Assembly (NCBI RefSeq): GCF_056746865.1
Contig: NZ_CM163382.1
Length of the DNA stretch: 64,000 nt
Reading direction: 5' to 3' (one strand)
Positions 32,175 to 52,857 of the stretch are shown one piece after another. Position 1 is the first letter of the stretch, and the number at the start of each line of letters is the position of its first letter. Below the pieces are notes generated by a model. That model worked only from the letters and a program-made list of their open reading frames with translations. It was not told the origin of the DNA and did not search any database. The position numbers and the translations under genes are program-made.

Positions 32175-32459
32175 ATGCCTTTAGCAGCCAAACTCACCGA
32201 CAAAGGCACCCAGCACGACGGTTATTACGAGACCGTCATCACCGCCGGGTCATCCACCGTCTTTATCGATGGTCTTCCCGCAGCCCGTCAGGGAGATCCG
32301 CTGACGCCGCATGCTAAACCGAAGCATCCCCCTCATCCCCGTAAAATCGCCAGAGGTTCTTCAACCGTCTTTATTGACGGCCTGCCCGCCGCCAGAAGCG
32401 GTGATGCTGTTGACTGCGGCGGCGTGGTTATTGGTGGCGGTACGGTAAATATAGGCTGA
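32175..32459 (+). CDS. PAAR-repeat protein (T6SS spike tip)
   Basis: 94-aa ORF with aggagg SD; duplicated GSSTVFIDGLPAAR(Q/S)GD motif. Confidence 0.75.
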   Translation: MPLAAKLTDKGTQHDGYYETVITAGSSTVFIDGLPAARQGDPLTPHAKPKHPPHPRKIARGSSTVFIDGLPAARSGDAVDCGGVVIGGGTVNIG

Positions 32460-32477: not shown

Positions 32478-34883
32478 ATGTCCTTAAAAGGTCTTCGCTT
32501 TACGCTGGAGGTTGACGGCCAGGAGCCGGACACCTTTGCAGTGGTGAATTTCAGGTTAATCCAGAACCAGTCATATCCGTTTGTGATGAGTGTGGATGTT
32601 GCCAGCGACTCTTTTATGCAGACGGCGGAGATGCTGCTGGAGAAGAAGGCGACACTGACCATCTGGCAGGGCGCAGTGGCGCAGCGTTATGTCACCGGCG
32701 TGGTGGCGGGTTTTGGCATGCAGGAGAATAACGGCTGGCAGATGCGTTATCACCTGCGTATTGAGCCGCCGTTATGGCGGTGCGGGCTGCGGCAGAACTT
32801 TCGTATCTTCCAGCAGCAGGATATCCGGACGATATCGGCCACGTTACTGAACGAGAACGGCGTCACGGAGTGGACGCCGCTGTTTTATGAGGACCATCCG
32901 GCGCGGGAGTTCTGTGTCCAGTACGGGGAGTCGGACCTGGCGTTTCTGTCCCGGCTATGGGCGGAGGAGGGTCTTTTCTTCTTTGAGCGGTTTGCGGCGG
33001 ACAGTCCGGAGCAGAAGCTGACGCTGTGCGACGATGTGGCGGGGCTGTCACAGGCGGGGGAGTTTCCGTTTAACCCGGACACATCGGCAGGAGCGGAGAC
33101 GGAGTGTGTCAGTATGTTCCGTTATGAGGCGCATGTCCGCCCGTCATCGGTGCAGAGCCAGGATTACACCTTTAAGGTGCCGGACTGGCCGGGGATGTAT
33201 GAGCAGCAGGGTGAGAACCTGAACGGACAGCTGGAGCAGTATGAGATATTTGATTATCCGGGAAGGTACAAGGATGAACAGCACGGCAAGGATTTCACGC
33301 TGTACCAGATGGAGAGCCTGCGCAGTGATGCGGAAAAGGCCACAGGGCAGAGTAATTCGCCGAAGCTGTGGCCGGGAACGCGGTTTATGCTGACGGGGCA
33401 TCCGCAGAAGATGCTGAACCGTGAATGGCAGGTGGTACAGAGCATACTGTCAGGAAACCAGCCGCAGGCGCTGCACGGCAGCCAGGGAAAGGGAACCACG
33501 CTGGGCAATCAGTTAGAGGTGATACCGGCGGACCGGACGTGGCGTCCACGGCTGCAAAACAAACCGAAGGTGGACGGGCCACAGAGCGCCATTGTCACCG
33601 GTCCTGCGGGAGAGGAAATCTTCTGCGACGAACACGGACGTGTGCGAGTGCAGTTTCACTGGGACAGGTATAACCCGGCAACGGAGGCGAGTTCATGCTG
33701 GGTGAGGGTGTCGCAGGCGTGGGCGGGGCCGGGGTTCGGTAACCTGGCGATACCACGGGTGGGTCAGGAGGTGATAGTGGACTTCCTGAACGGCGACCCG
33801 GACCAGCCGATAATCATGGGGCGGACGTACCATGAGGACAACCGTTCGCCGGGCGACCTGCCGGGAACGAAGACGCAGATGACCATCCGGTCAAAAACCT
33901 ATAAAGGAAGCGGATTTAACGAGCTGCGGTTTGAAGACGCCACCAGTAATGAGCAGGTGTATATCCATGCCCAGAAGAACATGGATACGGAGGTGCTCAA
34001 CGACCGGACAACGGATGTGAAACATGACCATACGGAAACCATCGGGAACGACCAGAAGATAACGGTGGTGAAGGGGCAGACGGTTCAGGTCGGGACCAGA
34101 AAAGAAGGGGGCCACGACCAGAGTATCACGGTGGCGAACGACCGGTGCATCACGGTACGTAATGACCAGACGCTGCAGGTGACGAATGACCGGACGGTGA
34201 GCGTGAGTAATGATGACGGCCTGTACGTCAGAAATGACCGTAAAGTGACGGTGGAAGGGAAGCAGGAGCATAAGACGACGGGGAACCATATCAGTCTGGT
34301 GGAGGGAAAGCACAGCCTGGTGGTGAAGGGGGACCTGGCGAGGAAGGTGAGTGGCGCGCTGGGGATAAAGGTGGACGGGGATATCGTGCTGGAGAGCAGC
34401 AGCCGGATAAGCCTGAAGGTGAGTGGCTCGTTTGTGGTCATCCATTCAGGGGGCGTGGACATCGTCGGGCCGAAAATCAATCTCAATAGCGGCGGTAGTC
34501 CGGGGACGCCGGTGCCGGCGCTGCAACCGGCGGTGCTGAAGACACTGGGGGATGAGAAGAGTGGTGATGGCAGTGATTCCGGAGAAGAAAATGAAGACTC
34601 TGGAGGGAACTGCGTGACCGGAAGTGGTGGTGATGATCGAGGTGACGATGAGGATGAACCTGAAAAATATACTCTCCAGTTCCATTTTACAGACGATGAC
34701 GGGATACCGTATTCAGAAACCCGCTACATTGCCTTCTTTGAGGATGGCACGCAGACCCGCGGAGAAACGGATGAAGAGGGGTATACAGAGCGTTTTTTTG
34801 TATCTAGCAAACATGAAATTAAAGTGAAGTTGTTATTTGCGAATGATGATTTTCTCTCAATGGAAGGACACTATGGACGATAA
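32478..34883 (+). CDS. vgrG: VgrG (type VI secretion spike protein) with C-terminal extension
   Basis: 801-aa ORF: gp27/gp5-like N-terminal part, beta-helix repeats (ITVANDRCITVRNDQTLQVTNDRTVSVSNDDGLYVRNDRKVTV), acidic Gly/Asp/Glu linker, then a ~70-aa C-terminal domain. Confidence 0.9.
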   Translation: MSLKGLRFTLEVDGQEPDTFAVVNFRLIQNQSYPFVMSVDVASDSFMQTAEMLLEKKATLTIWQGAVAQRYVTGVVAGFGMQENNGWQMRYHLRIEPPLWRCGLRQNFRIFQQQDIRTISATLLNENGVTEWTPLFYEDHPAREFCVQYGESDLAFLSRLWAEEGLFFFERFAADSPEQKLTLCDDVAGLSQAGEFPFNPDTSAGAETECVSMFRYEAHVRPSSVQSQDYTFKVPDWPGMYEQQGENLNGQLEQYEIFDYPGRYKDEQHGKDFTLYQMESLRSDAEKATGQSNSPKLWPGTRFMLTGHPQKMLNREWQVVQSILSGNQPQALHGSQGKGTTLGNQLEVIPADRTWRPRLQNKPKVDGPQSAIVTGPAGEEIFCDEHGRVRVQFHWDRYNPATEASSCWVRVSQAWAGPGFGNLAIPRVGQEVIVDFLNGDPDQPIIMGRTYHEDNRSPGDLPGTKTQMTIRSKTYKGSGFNELRFEDATSNEQVYIHAQKNMDTEVLNDRTTDVKHDHTETIGNDQKITVVKGQTVQVGTRKEGGHDQSITVANDRCITVRNDQTLQVTNDRTVSVSNDDGLYVRNDRKVTVEGKQEHKTTGNHISLVEGKHSLVVKGDLARKVSGALGIKVDGDIVLESSSRISLKVSGSFVVIHSGGVDIVGPKINLNSGGSPGTPVPALQPAVLKTLGDEKSGDGSDSGEENEDSGGNCVTGSGGDDRGDDEDEPEKYTLQFHFTDDDGIPYSETRYIAFFEDGTQTRGETDEEGYTERFFVSSKHEIKVKLLFANDDFLSMEGHYGR

Positions 34884-35664
34884 TAATCAAACTTCTGGAC
34901 AACCAAAGCCAGAGCCAGAAGAATGTGTGAAAGAGCAAAAAATAACTGATCATTTTAAAATAATGATTGATAAGGCTCGTAAGGCACAAAAGTTGGTTTT
35001 GATAAAAAGAGCAGATGATCTTTTGAGATGGGGAGCACAGGAGGAATATGATTTCAGTAAGATCTTTGGTGTTAAAGGAAATAAGGAGGTTAATATAAGA
35101 AAATATGGACATAATACAGGTAGGCGCATGAATGCTAGATTTCTTATGATGGATGGTGTGAGAAGATTAATGATTATAGCTAATGATTTAACAATGAGCA
35201 GTTTTATAAATTATACAGGTTGTAATGAATTTGCAGCATTCGTCAGCCCAAGTAAGGATATGCCCTATATAATTAACATAGGCGCAAAATTTGAGTATAG
35301 AGATGGCAAAAAAAATCCAGTAACGGGAAAGGATTCTCATGTTGCTACTTTATGTCATGAAATGTCTCATATTCAGTGGTATTATGGGGATAATAAAAAA
35401 GGTGGTATGTGGTCACAGGATTATACAACTACTGATAAATATTCAACGTGCAAAGAGGATGAAGTTTCATATGACGAACATATCCGTATTGCAACTAAAC
35501 TGATCTCTAAACAAAAAGATCAAATATTCGAGAATGCATATAACATAGAAAGATATTTTGAAATAAGATTAATTGAAAGTGAGATAGACTCGATTAATGA
35601 TGAAATATTAAGCAATTCAGTTAAGAAAAAAATAGCGGAATTAGAAAAAGCACTTCTCCATTAA
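34873..35664 (+). CDS. Candidate VgrG cargo effector with HExxH (zincin-like) motif
   Basis: ATG overlaps the vgrG stop (ATGGACGATAA); 263 aa; HEMSH at nt 35356-35370; GC content drops sharply at the vgrG stop. Confidence 0.55.
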   Translation: MDDNNQTSGQPKPEPEECVKEQKITDHFKIMIDKARKAQKLVLIKRADDLLRWGAQEEYDFSKIFGVKGNKEVNIRKYGHNTGRRMNARFLMMDGVRRLMIIANDLTMSSFINYTGCNEFAAFVSPSKDMPYIINIGAKFEYRDGKKNPVTGKDSHVATLCHEMSHIQWYYGDNKKGGMWSQDYTTTDKYSTCKEDEVSYDEHIRIATKLISKQKDQIFENAYNIERYFEIRLIESEIDSINDEILSNSVKKKIAELEKALLH

Positions 35665-35716
35665 CTAATAAGTCGAGAAATATATTAATGCTGCAAGCTA
35701 TAAAAAAATCATAATA

Positions 35717-36346
35717 ATGACAATCGTAAATATTATATTTTTCTATTCCTTTCAATCGACTGCGGATGAAATGGTTTTAATAAAAAAATACGGGTTTGGG
35801 CTTGAGAGAGATATCAAAGGAAGGCCATTAATTTATCCTATCGAAAATTATGATGAGTGTAAGAAAAAATGCAATCATATGAATTATATAGCGGATGTCA
35901 ATGCTCAATTAGCTATGAGTAAAAAAAACAACAGGATTTTTGCTAACATAACCTTTACTAACAATAGCTCTACCACGTATTTTTTTTCTAAATATTACCT
36001 ACCTATGAAAGTAAAAGATGGAAAAGGAGATGAATATGATGCGATATGCAAAAAACCATTCAGAATCAACTCTGGGAATATCACGTTGGACTACTTAGGT
36101 GGTTCATGTCCTTTTGAAATTAATACGAATCCTGAACGGTGGAATACTATTAAACCAGGTCGTAGTTTTTTGTTGAGTATAACCTTAAATGATATGTATG
36201 CCTTTATACCAGGAGATAATTATTATTTTATAAAATCATCTGGCTATAAATTTGTTAATGACAAGTGGTTTACACTCAAATCAATCAATAATATTTTTCT
36301 TTATTTTTTAAATTTAAAAATTAATTGTGCTGATGATTTTTTTTGA
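35717..36346 (+). CDS. Hypothetical protein, candidate immunity partner (ends at a T8 tract)
   Basis: 209-aa AT-rich ORF directly downstream of the effector candidate; stop lies in a T8 homopolymer; downstream ORF 36327-36509 is in the +1 frame. Confidence 0.4.
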   Translation: MTIVNIIFFYSFQSTADEMVLIKKYGFGLERDIKGRPLIYPIENYDECKKKCNHMNYIADVNAQLAMSKKNNRIFANITFTNNSSTTYFFSKYYLPMKVKDGKGDEYDAICKKPFRINSGNITLDYLGGSCPFEINTNPERWNTIKPGRSFLLSITLNDMYAFIPGDNYYFIKSSGYKFVNDKWFTLKSINNIFLYFLNLKINCADDFF

Positions 36347-36528
36347 TATTAATAATTTTACTACATGTGATAATTTGTTATTAGATGAAAAAAAATACTT
36401 TTTTATTAATCAGTTATGGGCAATTGAGGATGAAAAAAATTCTATTTACGTCACCCCTGATGAAATTTCTATAAGTATAGACGGCGATAACTTAAAGTTG
36501 CCATATTAGGAATCTGTGAAAGAACAAG

Positions 36529-37017
36529 GTGCGCCGCTTTTTTGTACTAAATAATTCGCATTTTAGTCACGGCAGAGAAGAAATCCATCTTCATATTGTT
36601 TGCGATGTCCCTGATGAACTTATTGATTTCACGTTTGAATGGAAAGGTCAGAAGAAATTATGCGTGGCAGTCTCCTTTTGGTCAATAATAGCAGAACAAA
36701 AGAAAGAGCCAGAAATGACGGTCAGATATTATATCAGTTCTGCTGATTTAACCGCAAAAAAGTTCGCCACAGCGATACGAAATCACTGGCACGTGGAGAA
36801 TAAGCTGCACTGGCGTCTGGACGTGGTAATGAACGAAGACGACTGCAAAATAAGAAGAGGAAACGCCGCAGAATTATTTTCAGGGATACGGCACATCGCT
36901 ATTAATATTTTAACGAATGATAAGGTATTCAAGGCAGGGTTAAGACGCAAGATGCGAAAAGCAGCTATGGACAGAGACTACCTCGCGTCAGTCCTTGCGG
37001 GGAGCGGGCTTTCGTAA
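36529..37017 (+). pseudogene. H-repeat-associated (ISAs1-family transposase) 3' remnant
   Basis: Translation ...[44 protein letters not shown]...[22 protein letters not shown] resembles the C-terminus of H-rpt proteins; no N-terminal half present. Confidence 0.7.
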
Positions 37018-37125: not shown

Positions 37126-37686
37126 ATGAAAAAAAGCAAAAAAATTAAAACAATGAACCATCAAAATAATAGCGGGATACAAAATCAACCAGACTATCAC
37201 ATCGAAATAGAAAGAAAAAATATGGTAAGATTGCTTGATGAACGTATTGATAAAGTTTACGGTTCATTGCTAGGACCAATGAAAAAGAAAAATATAGATA
37301 AAATACGTCATTTTACACTTGATGTAATGGTGTTTATTCTTGACACGAACCCTCGTGTTTGTAATAAATTATCCAGGGAAATAATATCTTTAGCGCAAAA
37401 TACCTTCATTGAAAAAAACGTTAATTTTTCAACTTTTAATAATGAACAGCATAGAATAAGGGAGTATATGAATGAAGGTGGTGGAATACGATGGTTTACA
37501 TGGGATAACCCCGAGATATCTTTTGTTCGTGCATCTTTTGGCCTTTTTGTCAAAATGGAAACAAAAGGTGATCATGAACATACACTAAGTGACACATTTC
37601 TTCAGATTGTTGAGTGTGTTAATTTAAATATAGGACTTATTGCAAAAGATGAACTGGTAAAAATCATCAATAAACACTTTATGTAA
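37126..37686 (+). CDS. Hypothetical protein (AT-rich orphan ORF)
   Basis: 186-aa ORF, ATG with acgagg SD, low GC; no motif recognised. Confidence 0.45.
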   Translation: MKKSKKIKTMNHQNNSGIQNQPDYHIEIERKNMVRLLDERIDKVYGSLLGPMKKKNIDKIRHFTLDVMVFILDTNPRVCNKLSREIISLAQNTFIEKNVNFSTFNNEQHRIREYMNEGGGIRWFTWDNPEISFVRASFGLFVKMETKGDHEHTLSDTFLQIVECVNLNIGLIAKDELVKIINKHFM

Positions 37687-38045: not shown

Positions 38046-38681
38046 ATGAATAAAGGTAATAGATTACAACAGTTAGAAGATGCGTGTCGTGATATTATTA
38101 AAATTAACATGTGGTATGAACTCCCCGATTATGTATTTTTTTCAATATCTGACACCATCGATGGGACGAGTGATGAATTCGCAATAAATGTGTATAAAAA
38201 TATCGATAAAAGTCTTCTTGAAATATTATTGCATCCATCTGTTTTACTGTCAGTTGTTGAGTCCTTACAAAGTAATACTATAGCTGAGTATATCGTGAAA
38301 TTGTCTGAAATAGAGATGAATTATGACGACTTGCTAATATCGGATGTTAAATCATGTCTTTTTATCAACTATGGATTCAATAACAGTGAATCGGTTGCGC
38401 TATTTAATAAGATTTACCGCGAATTAAAAGATATTGTAAAATCATCAAGAGTACATATAGATCATGAGAAAGATATTTTTGATGGCCTTAATCAAATCTT
38501 GGCTTTTTCCGATAATAATAAACATGAGTATTTTTTATATATAAAGGCATATTGGCTCAGTTTATACTTTTGTGAAATTTCACAGAACGTGAGAGAAAGA
38601 GATAAGTTGTCATTTTATTATAATGAATTTTCTGTCCGATTTCCTAATGTTGTCCTATATCCGTCATGCTACAAATTGTAA
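38046..38681 (+). CDS. Hypothetical protein (AT-rich orphan ORF)
   Basis: 211-aa ORF, ATG start, low GC; no motif recognised. Confidence 0.45.
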   Translation: MNKGNRLQQLEDACRDIIKINMWYELPDYVFFSISDTIDGTSDEFAINVYKNIDKSLLEILLHPSVLLSVVESLQSNTIAEYIVKLSEIEMNYDDLLISDVKSCLFINYGFNNSESVALFNKIYRELKDIVKSSRVHIDHEKDIFDGLNQILAFSDNNKHEYFLYIKAYWLSLYFCEISQNVRERDKLSFYYNEFSVRFPNVVLYPSCYKL

Positions 38682-40663: not shown

Positions 40664-40743
40664 TTTATGTCAGGTTGCCGGATGCGGCGTAATGAACTGC
40701 ACCCCAAATGTTGGACATAATCTGACATCTGAAGGTGCAGTTT

Positions 40744-41265
40744 ATGAAACATTCATTTGAAGTAAAACTTGCCGCTGTAAATCATTACCTGGCTGGTCAT
40801 GCAGGCATCATTTCTACGGTAAAACTCTTTCAACTTTCTCACACCAGCCTCTCACACTGGATTAATCTTTTTCTTCTTCACGGTCCTCGGGCACTGGATT
40901 GCAGACACAAGCGTAGCTATTCTCCTGAAGATAAACTTTGCGTGGTTCTTTATGCTCTCGGGCATTCTGAGTCTCTACCCCGGGTAGCTGCCCGGTTTAA
41001 CATTCCCAGCCACAACACGGTTAAAAACTGGATAAAAGGCTACCGCAAATCTGGTAATGAGGCCTTTATCAGGCGCAGGAAGGAGAAAAGCATGACCCGT
41101 TCTGATGATACCCATGAAAACGAGGCAAACATGACGCCGGAAGAGATGAAGAATGAGCTGCGTTATCTTCGCGCAGAAAATGCATATCTGAAAGCCATGC
41201 AGGAGCATCTCCTGGAAAAAAAGCGCCAGGAGCTGGAGAAAAAACGAAAGTCATCCGGAGCCTGA
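40744..41265 (+). CDS. IS3-family transposase OrfA (HTH)
   Basis: ATG at 40744 with gaaggtg SD; ends shortly after the slippery heptamer A_AAA_AAG at 41217-41223. Confidence 0.8.
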   Translation: MKHSFEVKLAAVNHYLAGHAGIISTVKLFQLSHTSLSHWINLFLLHGPRALDCRHKRSYSPEDKLCVVLYALGHSESLPRVAARFNIPSHNTVKNWIKGYRKSGNEAFIRRRKEKSMTRSDDTHENEANMTPEEMKNELRYLRAENAYLKAMQEHLLEKKRQELEKKRKSSGA

Positions 41266-41369
41266 GGTGCGGACACTGCCAGTCTGACCTGTTAAAGGCT
41301 GCAGGGCTGGCCAGAAGCACGCTGTACTACCAGCTGTCACTGCAGAAGGCTAAGGACAAGTATGCTGAT

Positions 41370-42124
<755 letters not shown>

Positions 42125-51600: not shown

Positions 51601-52857
51601 TCACTGAAAAGGCCATGAGCTGGAGGAAAACGATCTGTCCAGAAAGTCTATCGGTTCCTCTCTTATCGCCTCATTGTAATAATCGTTATTACAGTAAGTA
51701 TTGTTTATTTCATCTAATGTCATATTTTTAATTTTTATATTCATCTGATTTACAACTTCTTCTGTTTTATAAGTGTGTATATTATATGGGGTATATGCTT
51801 CTTTAATAGTATAGTGAAACAATTCGTTATCCACATCTACTCCTTCAGAGTGAATTTCAAATGCACCAGGCGAAAGAATTGCCAGGCCAGTATTAAGCTT
51901 AAGTGCTGGGGAAAATAAATTAAATAACATGAGCTGCATAGTAGGGCAATTGTTCTTCCCAGAAACATTTAAAAAATTTAAGTTTTTGCTCTGTTTTATT
52001 ATGGGGAATAAAGTTCCAATATCGGACGTATTCTTAGTGTCAATGCGGGTTATTTTATTATTGTCCAGCCTTAAACTTTTGATAGATGAAAGATAAGTCA
52101 GGAAATGAAGGTTTATTTTTTCCAACTGATTGTTCGCAGCGTTTAATGTCTGAATATTGCAGAAGTTGCTAAAGAATATTTTAATTTCAGAAAGCAAGTT
52201 GTTGTTGATAAGTAACGTATTCAAGTTGGGAAATAAGGTATTATGTAAACTTGTTAGTTTATTATGGGATAGATCCAGAAGTAAGAGTTCATCTTTATTT
52301 CCTGCAACAATATCAGTTAATTGATTGTGGCTGAGATTCAGGTACTGCAGCCTTTCGCAACATTCTAATTGCACAAACTCTAGTTGATTATGTGCCGCAC
52401 TAAAATAAGTAATTGATGAAAGCCTATCTATATCAATATTTCTGAGAGAATTATTATTCATAGATATATGTGTAATGCTTACATTTCTACCTTGAGGAAA
52501 ATTTATTGACTCAAGAGCATTACTATTCAGACTAAGGTTGATGAGTCTATCGTAGGTGGTTGCATCAAAATGTTTGAGTTGGTTCTCATCAAGATTGATA
52601 GAGGTGAAGTTTTGCAGTCCTGGTGGTTGAGTAGTTAAATTAAGCCCTGATAAATCAATATTATTCTGTTTCGACAAAAAAGCACAATTTATCCTTTTAG
52701 CGGCTTCGTTTCGGCATTCCGGACGATGGATTTCACCTGTAAGTATGCGTTCTGCTTTCCATTGATTTAATTCGAGCATCCAGTTAAGTTCATTTTTTTC
52801 TGGATGTTGCTGTATGGATTGTGGATTTATTTTATTAAATATTGAAGGGAATTTCAT
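51601..52857 (-). CDS. Leucine-rich repeat protein (intact; K-12 yddJ position)
   Basis: ATG at 52857 with ggag SD (the longer track ORF starts at GTG 52896); tandem ~20-22 residue LRRs (LxxLxLxxNxL); low GC. Confidence 0.7.
   Translation of the reverse strand: MKFPSIFNKINPQSIQQHPEKNELNWMLELNQWKAERILTGEIHRPECRNEAAKRINCAFLSKQNNIDLSGLNLTTQPPGLQNFTSINLDENQLKHFDATTYDRLINLSLNSNALESINFPQGRNVSITHISMNNNSLRNIDIDRLSSITYFSAAHNQLEFVQLECCERLQYLNLSHNQLTDIVAGNKDELLLLDLSHNKLTSLHNTLFPNLNTLLINNNLLSEIKIFFSNFCNIQTLNAANNQLEKINLHFLTYLSSIKSLRLDNNKITRIDTKNTSDIGTLFPIIKQSKNLNFLNVSGKNNCPTMQLMLFNLFSPALKLNTGLAILSPGAFEIHSEGVDVDNELFHYTIKEAYTPYNIHTYKTEEVVNQMNIKIKNMTLDEINNTYCNNDYYNEAIREEPIDFLDRSFSSSSWPFQ

Follow-up and report, generated by a model that had tools for sequence, protein, structure and literature searches.

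What does the spike of a type VI secretion system (T6SS) carry when its gene, vgrG, is followed by an AT-rich gene with a metallopeptidase motif, and what protects the cell that makes this cargo? The question is raised by a 64,000-nt stretch of contig NZ_CM163382.1 (RefSeq assembly GCF_056746865.1), which we call the window. On its + strand, an orphan vgrG is followed directly by a gene for a protein of 263 amino acids. A preliminary description of the window, made from its sequence alone, noted a zincin-like HEMSH motif in this protein and nothing else that could be assigned, and suggested that it is a T6SS effector with an immunity partner encoded downstream. We propose that the protein is a T6SS cargo toxin with the fold of an M35 zinc endopeptidase, that VgrG carries it into the periplasm of neighboring cells, and that kin are protected by the downstream protein. 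We give this reading, with its outline of loading, periplasmic attack, and kin protection, a probability of about 0.8. By aligning the family, we could assign more than HEMSH, namely Asp183, the motif NAYNIERYF, and the M35 family:

34873..35664, + strand: effector gene, predicted to encode a propeptide-less M35-like aspzincin of 263 amino acids
35356..35370, + strand: HEMSH (H162, E163, H166), the putative zinc-binding and catalytic motif, in predicted helix 156-166; invariant in 19 homologues
35419..35421, + strand: codon for Asp183, the candidate third zinc ligand (the Asp of aspzincins); invariant in 19 homologues
35533..35559, + strand: NAYNIERYF (residues 221-229), the counterpart of the C-terminal NADxxEYF motif of aspzincins

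As the preliminary description stated, HEMSH is the sole HExxH in the protein (residues 162-166, nt 35356-35370). We estimate that under 1% of proteins of this length contain HExxH by chance, which is weak evidence across a whole window. Here the motif is not a chance match, because it is invariant in 19 homologues (33–63% identity) and lies in a predicted helix. The enterobacterial toxin family is small, with 29 database clusters, and we used an alignment of these 19 homologues since searches with a single sequence were too weak: on its own, the effector matched Aspzincin_M35 from Pfam (PF14521) with E = 0.005 and, in the PDB, AsaP1 with E = 1.3. Fourteen of the 19 family members match Aspzincin_M35 at E ≤ 0.1, and two at E ≤ 0.001. 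When we compared the family's profile to the sequences in the PDB, it matched AsaP1 (E = 1.8e-6) and GfMEP (E = 1.3e-3). The AlphaFold2 model of the effector, with a predicted local distance difference test score (pLDDT) of 89.8, has HEMSH within the helix at 156-166 and has the catalytic-domain fold of M35, and Foldseek matched it to GfMEP with a probability of 1.0. Profile searches and structure prediction had been suggested as checks on a zincin-like fold. Both support this fold, and they sharpen it from a minimal HExxH signature to an M35 aspzincin with Asp183 as a candidate third ligand.

In the short members of the family, an invariant Asp lies nine residues past the second His, which is the same spacing as in GfMEP and AsaP1. 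We also used hhalign to compare the effector family to a 206-amino-acid aspzincin that is linked to vgrG and DUF4123 genes on a metagenomic contig (L027). This gave a probability of 99.5 (E = 1.4e-22) and paired GGMWSQD of the effector with GGTED of the relative, which bears the canonical motifs GTEDHVYG and NADSFEYY. NAYNIERYF aligns with NADNHEYF of AsaP1 and with NADSFEYY of the L027 aspzincin. In the 19-member alignment, N221, A222, Y223, N224, E226, R227, Y228, and F229 are invariant, and I225 is nearly so. Given these alignments and the model, the effector is likely an M35 aspzincin, though a divergent one, and its third zinc ligand is likely Asp183. It would be expected to bind zinc and to cleave proteins.

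The divergence is substantial. The effector is 16–21% identical to the M35 peptidases (in MEROPS) GfMEP (PDB 1g12) and deuterolysin (1eb6). Relative to these enzymes, GTxDxxYG is reduced to its Asp, with an 8-residue insertion before it; Tyr223 replaces the Asp of NADNHEYF; and there is an extra disordered N-terminal segment as well as a C-terminal helix. Across the effector family, the G, T, Y, and G of GTxDxxYG are not conserved, and the Asp alone is kept. There is no propeptide in cis, as the 263 amino acids comprise a disordered N terminus and the catalytic domain. In contrast, AsaP1 from Aeromonas salmonicida (PDB 2x3a), like other bacterial pro-aspzincins, is a single secreted polypeptide with a signal peptide, a propeptide, and the protease. 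The toxin in the window has neither a signal peptide nor a propeptide and would ride on the T6SS spike, and the propeptide-like domain comes from the gene downstream, as an exported protein of its own.

We considered two other families of peptidases. VgrG2b belongs to DUF4157 and is a thermolysin-like gluzincin whose third ligand is Glu (PMC6899460). The effector has no DUF4157 domain according to Pfam, it has no sequence or fold match to the structure of VgrG2b, and its candidate third ligand is Asp. Nevertheless, the C-terminal metallopeptidase of VgrG2b from Pseudomonas aeruginosa, together with PA0261, works alike: it is a VgrG-delivered HExxH zinc peptidase that acts in the periplasm, it is countered by a periplasmic immunity protein that contains disulfides, and there is a transthyretin-like domain beside the toxin. 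As for Peptidase_M91 (PF14891), which includes NleD-type effectors from type III secretion systems, the best E values were 0.027 and 0.014, no family member reached E ≤ 0.001, and the M91 fold was not among the top fold matches of the effector.

The toxin gene is already annotated and published, so its novelty is low, although the preliminary description implied otherwise. Its RefSeq product name is "peptidase M35", and a nearly identical protein from E. coli BCE049 has been tested. (Our literature searches for T6SS together with "aspzincin" or "peptidase M35" found nothing.) The M35-peptidase of BCE049 (FQU84_13640) is identical to the protein in the window at 262 of 263 positions, with N242D as the substitution. 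Predicted as a T6SS effector, it arrested the growth of E. coli only if it had a PelB leader, not in the cytoplasm (PMC7904677). So, toxicity upon expression, which had been suggested as a check, is already in the literature for a protein directed to the periplasm. Deleting the locus from BCE049 did not change its virulence in mice (PMC7904677). This locus, known as "effector locus 1", has the peptidase in its "module 5" (the VgrG-O2 island) and lies at the same site as in the window, between ansP/yncG and yddH/nhoA. It shares the order PAAR-vgrG-toxin and the 11-nt overlap of the toxin gene with vgrG, and VgrG-O2 is 96% identical to the VgrG in the window. It differs in having a second vgrG module ahead, and its downstream gene is disrupted at different homopolymer sites. 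More broadly, 520 of the 5426 complete E. coli genomes (~10%) have the toxin ORF (open reading frame), nearly always at 99% identity or above.

A paralogue has been studied as well. M35-PAR was lethal when expressed from pET22b, was rescued by the downstream gene AKO63_2956, and was bound by the product of a 3' vgrG ORF (PMC10673891). In the metV-locus T6SS cluster of E. coli PAR, a frameshifted vgrG is followed by genes for proteins of 262 and 308 amino acids. The 262-amino-acid protein is 30% identical to the toxin in the window (E = 2e-33), and its gene starts inside the vgrG stop. The 308-amino-acid protein is a homologue of the window's downstream protein (31% identity over 137 amino acids, E = 3e-21), and the VgrG carries the same C-terminal domain (described below). 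From the gene order, we infer that these two proteins are M35-PAR (AKO63_2955) and AKO63_2956, and that the preceding vgrG encodes VgrG-PAR/DUF2345-PAR. The PAR module differs from ours in lying inside the metV-locus cluster and in its DUF2345-type VgrG body, which is just 25% identical. Also, M35-PAR contains large insertions and is missing the C-terminal helix (residues 232-263) of the toxin in the window. M35-PAR has been equated with the metallopeptidase of VgrG2b (PMC10673891). We did not recover VgrG2b in any sequence or fold search, and the two belong to different families of zincins.

How would the toxin reach its target? The genes for the spike lie immediately upstream:

32175..32459, + strand: gene for the PAAR spike tip, 94 amino acids, the first gene of the island (NCBIfam NF033420, T6SS_PAAR_dom, E = 1.4e-46; also annotated by RefSeq)
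32478..34883, + strand: vgrG, an orphan T6SS spike gene, 801 amino acids (TIGR03361, E = 6.5e-181)
34662..34838, + strand: C-terminal domain of VgrG (amino acids 729-787, EKYTLQFHFTDDDGIPYSETRYIAFFEDGTQTRGETDEEGYTERF...KVKLLF), after an acidic Gly/Asp linker
34862..34868, + strand: Shine-Dalgarno-like GGAAGGA inside vgrG, 4 nt 5' of the effector's ATG, as read directly from the sequence

The linkage to vgrG is consistent across the family. All eight of the relatives that we fetched (from E. coli, Salmonella, Buttiauxella, Franconibacter, and metagenomic contigs) lie directly 3' of vgrG. In six of the eight, the gene begins before vgrG has ended, with an overlap of 8–14 nt, and the other two start 1–5 nt past the upstream gene. 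Two modules in the PAR cluster are linked to vgrG and overlap its stop likewise. These findings bear out the idea that the gene encodes cargo for the adjacent VgrG.

In the window, the ATG of the effector (34873) lies 11 nt within the 3' end of vgrG (32478-34883; ...CACTATGGACGATAA), whose last codons, with the internal ATG, are ATGGACGATAA. This agrees with the preliminary description, which had the 263-amino-acid ORF (34873-35664) overlap the vgrG stop. There is an alternative in-frame start, TTG at 34837. We favor the ATG because the RefSeq annotation and the N termini of all of the homologues agree with it. A scan of the locus for promoters and terminators did no better than on shuffled sequence, and we did not use it.

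A drop in GC content had been described as occurring exactly at this junction. The drop is real, from 0.582 (vgrG, 32478-34600) to 0.324 in the effector ORF and 0.282 in the downstream gene, as compared to 0.484 for the whole window. But it starts inside vgrG: the GC content of the final 283 nt of vgrG is already 0.445, and it is 0.30–0.38 in 60-nt windows from about 34660-34780. Furthermore, the VgrG protein departs from sister VgrGs with other cargo from about amino acid 490-540. Because both the fall in GC and the divergence of the protein begin within vgrG, the swapped module takes in the 3' part of vgrG. The earlier inference of a swapped-in cargo module is upheld, but its boundary lies inside vgrG and not at the start of the ORF.

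This 3' part of vgrG encodes a candidate loading site. In Pfam, the VgrG in the window has the domains Phage_GPD, Phage_base_V, and Gp5_trimer_C, with no match to DUF2345. Its ~60-amino-acid C-terminal domain (EKYTLQFHFTDDDGIPYSETRYIAFFEDGTQTRGETDEEGYT...) is present in all seven of the aligned VgrGs that precede a family member. The domain is found on both types of VgrG body (Gp5_trimer_C and DUF2345), even though the bodies are only 25% identical, and sister VgrGs with other cargo lack it. Because it is conserved along with the type of cargo, we propose that it is probably a cargo-binding adaptor. Transthyretin-like domains have been reported for VgrG1-Tle1 and VgrG2b (PMC6899460). With these precedents and its sequence pattern, the C-terminal domain of our VgrG may be transthyretin-like too. 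Comparing the C-terminal 131 amino acids of VgrG to the sequences in the PDB gave no match.

For the paralogue, DUF2345 has been credited with bridging VgrG and M35-PAR (PMC10673891). The ORF that was used is the 3' part of the frameshifted vgrG. This ORF (in the region L016:30121-34430 of our data) includes the conserved ~60-amino-acid domain, which is also present on VgrGs without DUF2345. So, the conserved domain may be the real binding site in that experiment.

What would protect the cell and its kin? The gene after the effector has these features:

35688..36509, + strand: gene for the candidate immunity protein (a signal peptide and a propeptide-like beta-sandwich; 273 amino acids when intact)
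35702..35708, + strand: run of seven A's (eight in strain 042); a -1 frameshift by which the signal peptide loses its first 10 codons and, with them, its basic residues
36337..36344, + strand: run of eight T's (seven in 042); a +1 frameshift by which the last ~55 amino acids are lost and the beta-sandwich core (~70-190) is kept

The preliminary description took the small ORF that follows as the immunity partner. The partner itself stands, as a co-inherited family with signal peptides, but the annotated ORF (35717-36346, 209 amino acids) is a remnant of the 273-amino-acid gene, which is frameshifted twice in the window. In E. coli 042, the downstream protein is intact, with 273 amino acids and a Sec-type signal peptide (MLQAIKKIIIMTIVNIIFFYSFQSTA/DE). 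A homologous protein, with two conserved cysteines, is encoded after every member of the toxin family. The nine downstream proteins that we aligned share LDYLGG, LNDxYAF, and VNxxWF, and eight of the nine have a signal peptide. In the complete E. coli genomes, the downstream gene is present in 639, versus 520 for the toxin. The AlphaFold model of the downstream protein is a beta-sandwich, with a core (~70-190) whose pLDDT is mostly above 80. A word-indexed homologue search with the immunity protein found only copies and fragments from E. coli. The co-inheritance of the downstream family, the signal peptides, and the relief of the paralogue's toxicity by its own downstream gene (PMC10673891) all support the earlier proposal of an effector/immunity pair.

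The 209-amino-acid remnant retains a hydrophobic leader and the whole beta-sandwich, and there are natural members of 203–206 amino acids that lack the C-terminal part. Because of this, the remnant may still protect. Some of the homopolymer indels recur at the same sites (position 235 of the immunity gene in three strains and position 650 in two), and in the B2 strains the breaks lie within the beta-sandwich core. These indels could reflect pseudogenization, phase variation, or assembly error.

Where might the immunity protein have come from? We built a profile of the family, trimmed of its signal peptides, and compared it to 1.84 billion representative sequences. This yielded 158 proteins, of which 62 were at E ≤ 1e-30 and mostly full-length. 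The tail of the results comprised secreted single-domain proteins of 130–190 amino acids. According to hhalign, this tail family is related both to the immunity family (probability 99.4, E = 1.9e-21) and to the N-terminal pro-regions of two AsaP1-like aspzincin genes (probability 98.9, E = 1.4e-17). phmmer also linked the tail family to aspzincin pro-regions, with E values as low as 4.5e-13. We recovered the two pro-regions from the contig DNA around two AsaP1-like fragments; a search with an 83-amino-acid fragment of AsaP1 gave short fragments alone and no full-length pro-enzymes. The pro-region of a gene that is 89% AsaP1-like also matched the tail profile. Among the 150 best matches to the immunity profile, there was no fused protein with a propeptide and HExxH. 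The profile had just spurious matches in the PDB (to carbonic anhydrase and hemocyanin), and it matched no Pfam family.

We traced two loci with tail-family proteins, on metagenomic contigs L027 and L026. In both of them, the gene lies directly after one for a 206-amino-acid propeptide-less aspzincin, which suggests that the class of aspzincin/propeptide-like pairs is broader than Enterobacterales. On L027 (47-3916), vgrG and a DUF4123 adaptor gene lie upstream of the aspzincin, which has HEMSH as well as GTEDHVYG and NADSFEYY, and the propeptide-like protein is a predicted lipoprotein. On L026 (3384-4564), the aspzincin is followed by a secreted propeptide-like protein.

We tentatively propose that the toxin and its antidote are a pro-aspzincin that was split into two genes, with a propeptide-derived immunity protein that is exported to the periplasm and obstructs the active site there. 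The odds of this are slightly below even. The downstream protein would cap the active-site cleft, as the propeptide of AsaP1 does in cis. Our literature search for propeptide-like immunity returned nothing relevant, and we did not find this class of effector-immunity pair described.

Putting the pieces together, PAAR, vgrG, and the toxin would be expressed together, with the toxin gene sharing a transcript with the orphan vgrG and being translationally coupled to it. The toxin would bind the cargo-specific ~60-amino-acid C-terminal domain of VgrG. The T6SS at the aspV locus would fire the PAAR-VgrG spike, with the toxin, into the periplasm of neighboring Gram-negative cells. There, the zinc endopeptidase would cleave a substrate in the envelope, and growth would stop. 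Kin would be protected by the Sec-exported downstream protein, with its propeptide-homologous beta-sandwich core. In this outline, we infer the loading site, the T6SS-dependent delivery, and the mode of inhibition. By analogy to relatives that cleave proteins, our guess is that the substrate is among the envelope proteins rather than peptidoglycan.

We took CFSAN061770 (NZ_CP023142.1) as the source strain: it is 100% identical over an 856-nt query from the downstream gene, and it shares an IS1397 element beside nhoA. CFSAN061770 has no T6SS at metV, where the site is empty. Its aspV core cluster (NZ_CP023142.1, 4091832-4114762) includes tssA, tssB, tssC, tssE, tssF, tssG, tssH, tssJ, tssK, tssL, and tssM, as well as tagH and two hcp genes. 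The vgrG of this cluster is truncated, and its product is ~96% identical to the VgrG in the window over the first ~490 amino acids. A compatible machine is thus present, as the core cluster is full and its vgrG is of the matching type. The orphan vgrG in the window is intact and may be a spare spike for the aspV machine. (A DUF4123 gene and two genes without annotation come after the truncated vgrG.)

Several observations weigh against our proposal. The aspzincin motif is incomplete, as the Tyr at +3 of GTxDxxYG is absent. The Asp of NADNHEYF lines the Lys pocket of GfMEP, and the effector has Tyr223 instead, so its specificity cannot be predicted. Proteolysis, zinc binding, the substrate, and T6SS-dependent secretion are unreported across the family, the published orthologues included. 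AKO63_2953-2956 were mapped to RefSeq genes by inference from gene order and not from sequences in PMC10673891. In UM146, vgrG stops 45 nt ahead of the toxin's ATG, so the coupling to vgrG is not universal. The model of the immunity protein is of moderate quality (pLDDT 74). As for its origin, the direct comparison of the immunity and propeptide profiles is weak (P = 0.0022, probability 12.9%, and ~3 bits from hmmsearch), and their homology rests on the intermediate family and a fold match. The immunity gene is frameshifted here and in three of four other strains (UM146, O145:H28 16003, and BCE049); only the copy in 042 is intact. The toxin ORF is full-length in three of the four strains with a frameshifted immunity gene, which is odd for a toxin that is actively fired.

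These frameshifts would make sense if the module were a decaying relic here, with an intact toxin ORF but a pair that goes unused (either unexpressed or unloaded), as the immunity gene would then be free to gather frameshifts. There are two homopolymer frameshifts here and two or three in each of the other three strains, which leaves one intact copy among five. The protein database holds many truncated forms; O145:H28 has a truncated toxin and a truncated vgrG; the module is followed by the remnant of an ISAs1 element and by AT-rich orphan ORFs; and deleting the whole locus from BCE049 left its virulence in mice unchanged. However, 488 records have the toxin at 99% identity or above, and in 514 genomes it covers at least 80% of the query, which argues for purifying selection or a recent spread. 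Neither PAAR nor vgrG is broken, the strain has kept a complete T6SS core cluster of the matching type, the 209-amino-acid remnant with its core and leader may still protect, and assembly errors in long-read genomes could account for some of the indels. We think that a relic is unlikely.

Another possibility is that the protease is a virulence effector that targets proteins of a eukaryotic host, like AsaP1 of Aeromonas. Among relatives with solved structures, the closest (AsaP1 and the fungal M35 enzymes) are secreted toxins or virulence proteases, and the gene is frequent in isolates from humans and animals, including enteroaggregative E. coli 042 and extraintestinal pathogenic E. coli. This seems inconsistent with the dedicated periplasmic partner after every family member (with a signal peptide in eight of nine), with toxicity to E. 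coli only upon reaching the periplasm, with the neutralization of the paralogue by its own downstream gene, and with the lack of attenuation of the BCE049 deletion in mice. We consider a host target to be quite improbable, although it is not strictly exclusive of a bacterial one. The propeptides of secreted proteases commonly serve as intramolecular chaperones, so we also considered that the downstream protein, being homologous to an aspzincin propeptide, might be a folding chaperone (a pro-domain in trans) instead of an immunity protein. But its Sec signal peptide and conserved pairs of cysteines point to the periplasm, while the toxin has no signal peptide and would be loaded in the cytoplasm. 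Also, co-expression of the downstream gene abolishes the paralogue's toxicity, and the toxin alone is active once it is directed to the periplasm. A chaperone therefore seems very improbable. Still less plausible is that the effector binds zinc without catalysis and is exported by the T6SS as a zinc scavenger, similar to Pra1 of Candida, which is an M35-like zincophore.

The rest of the island bears on its history. Between ansP/yncG and yddH/nhoA, it consists of PAAR, vgrG, the toxin, the downstream gene, the remnant of an insertion sequence (IS), and two AT-rich hypothetical ORFs:

36529..37017, + strand: remnant of an ISAs1 transposase after the module (NF033564, E = 7.5e-34; annotated as a pseudogene)

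The two AT-rich ORFs (GC ~0.30) are at 37126-37686 (186 amino acids) and 38046-38681 (211 amino acids), and neither has a signal peptide. They could be orphan immunity genes from earlier cargo modules at an Rhs/vgrG hotspot. The toxin, the downstream protein, and these two ORFs had no match in NCBIfam or PADLOC. At the same locus in O145:H28 16003 (L004:4423-5971), vgrG is interrupted by an IS3 element, the toxin is a 90-amino-acid C-terminal fragment, and there is a gene with a C39 cysteine-peptidase domain upstream; this locus exemplifies the turnover of modules. Elsewhere in the window, an IS3-family element, IS1397, is at 40735-42092, between nhoA and yddE, and is absent from that site in E. 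coli 042. On the minus strand between narU and yddG, there is a gene for a leucine-rich-repeat protein (~51601-52857) and an extra ompC-like porin gene (~54348-55448); these two are not at that position in BCE049.

The cargo is likely loaded at the conserved C-terminal domain of VgrG and not at DUF2345 itself, which reinterprets a published binding experiment. The altered pocket motif, with Tyr223 in place of the Asp of NADNHEYF, puts the substrate of aspzincin toxins among the points that are worth pursuing. And if the immunity protein is a detached propeptide, then this family of T6SS immunity proteins would have a concrete and testable origin and mechanism, and would show a route from a secreted pro-enzyme to an effector-immunity pair.

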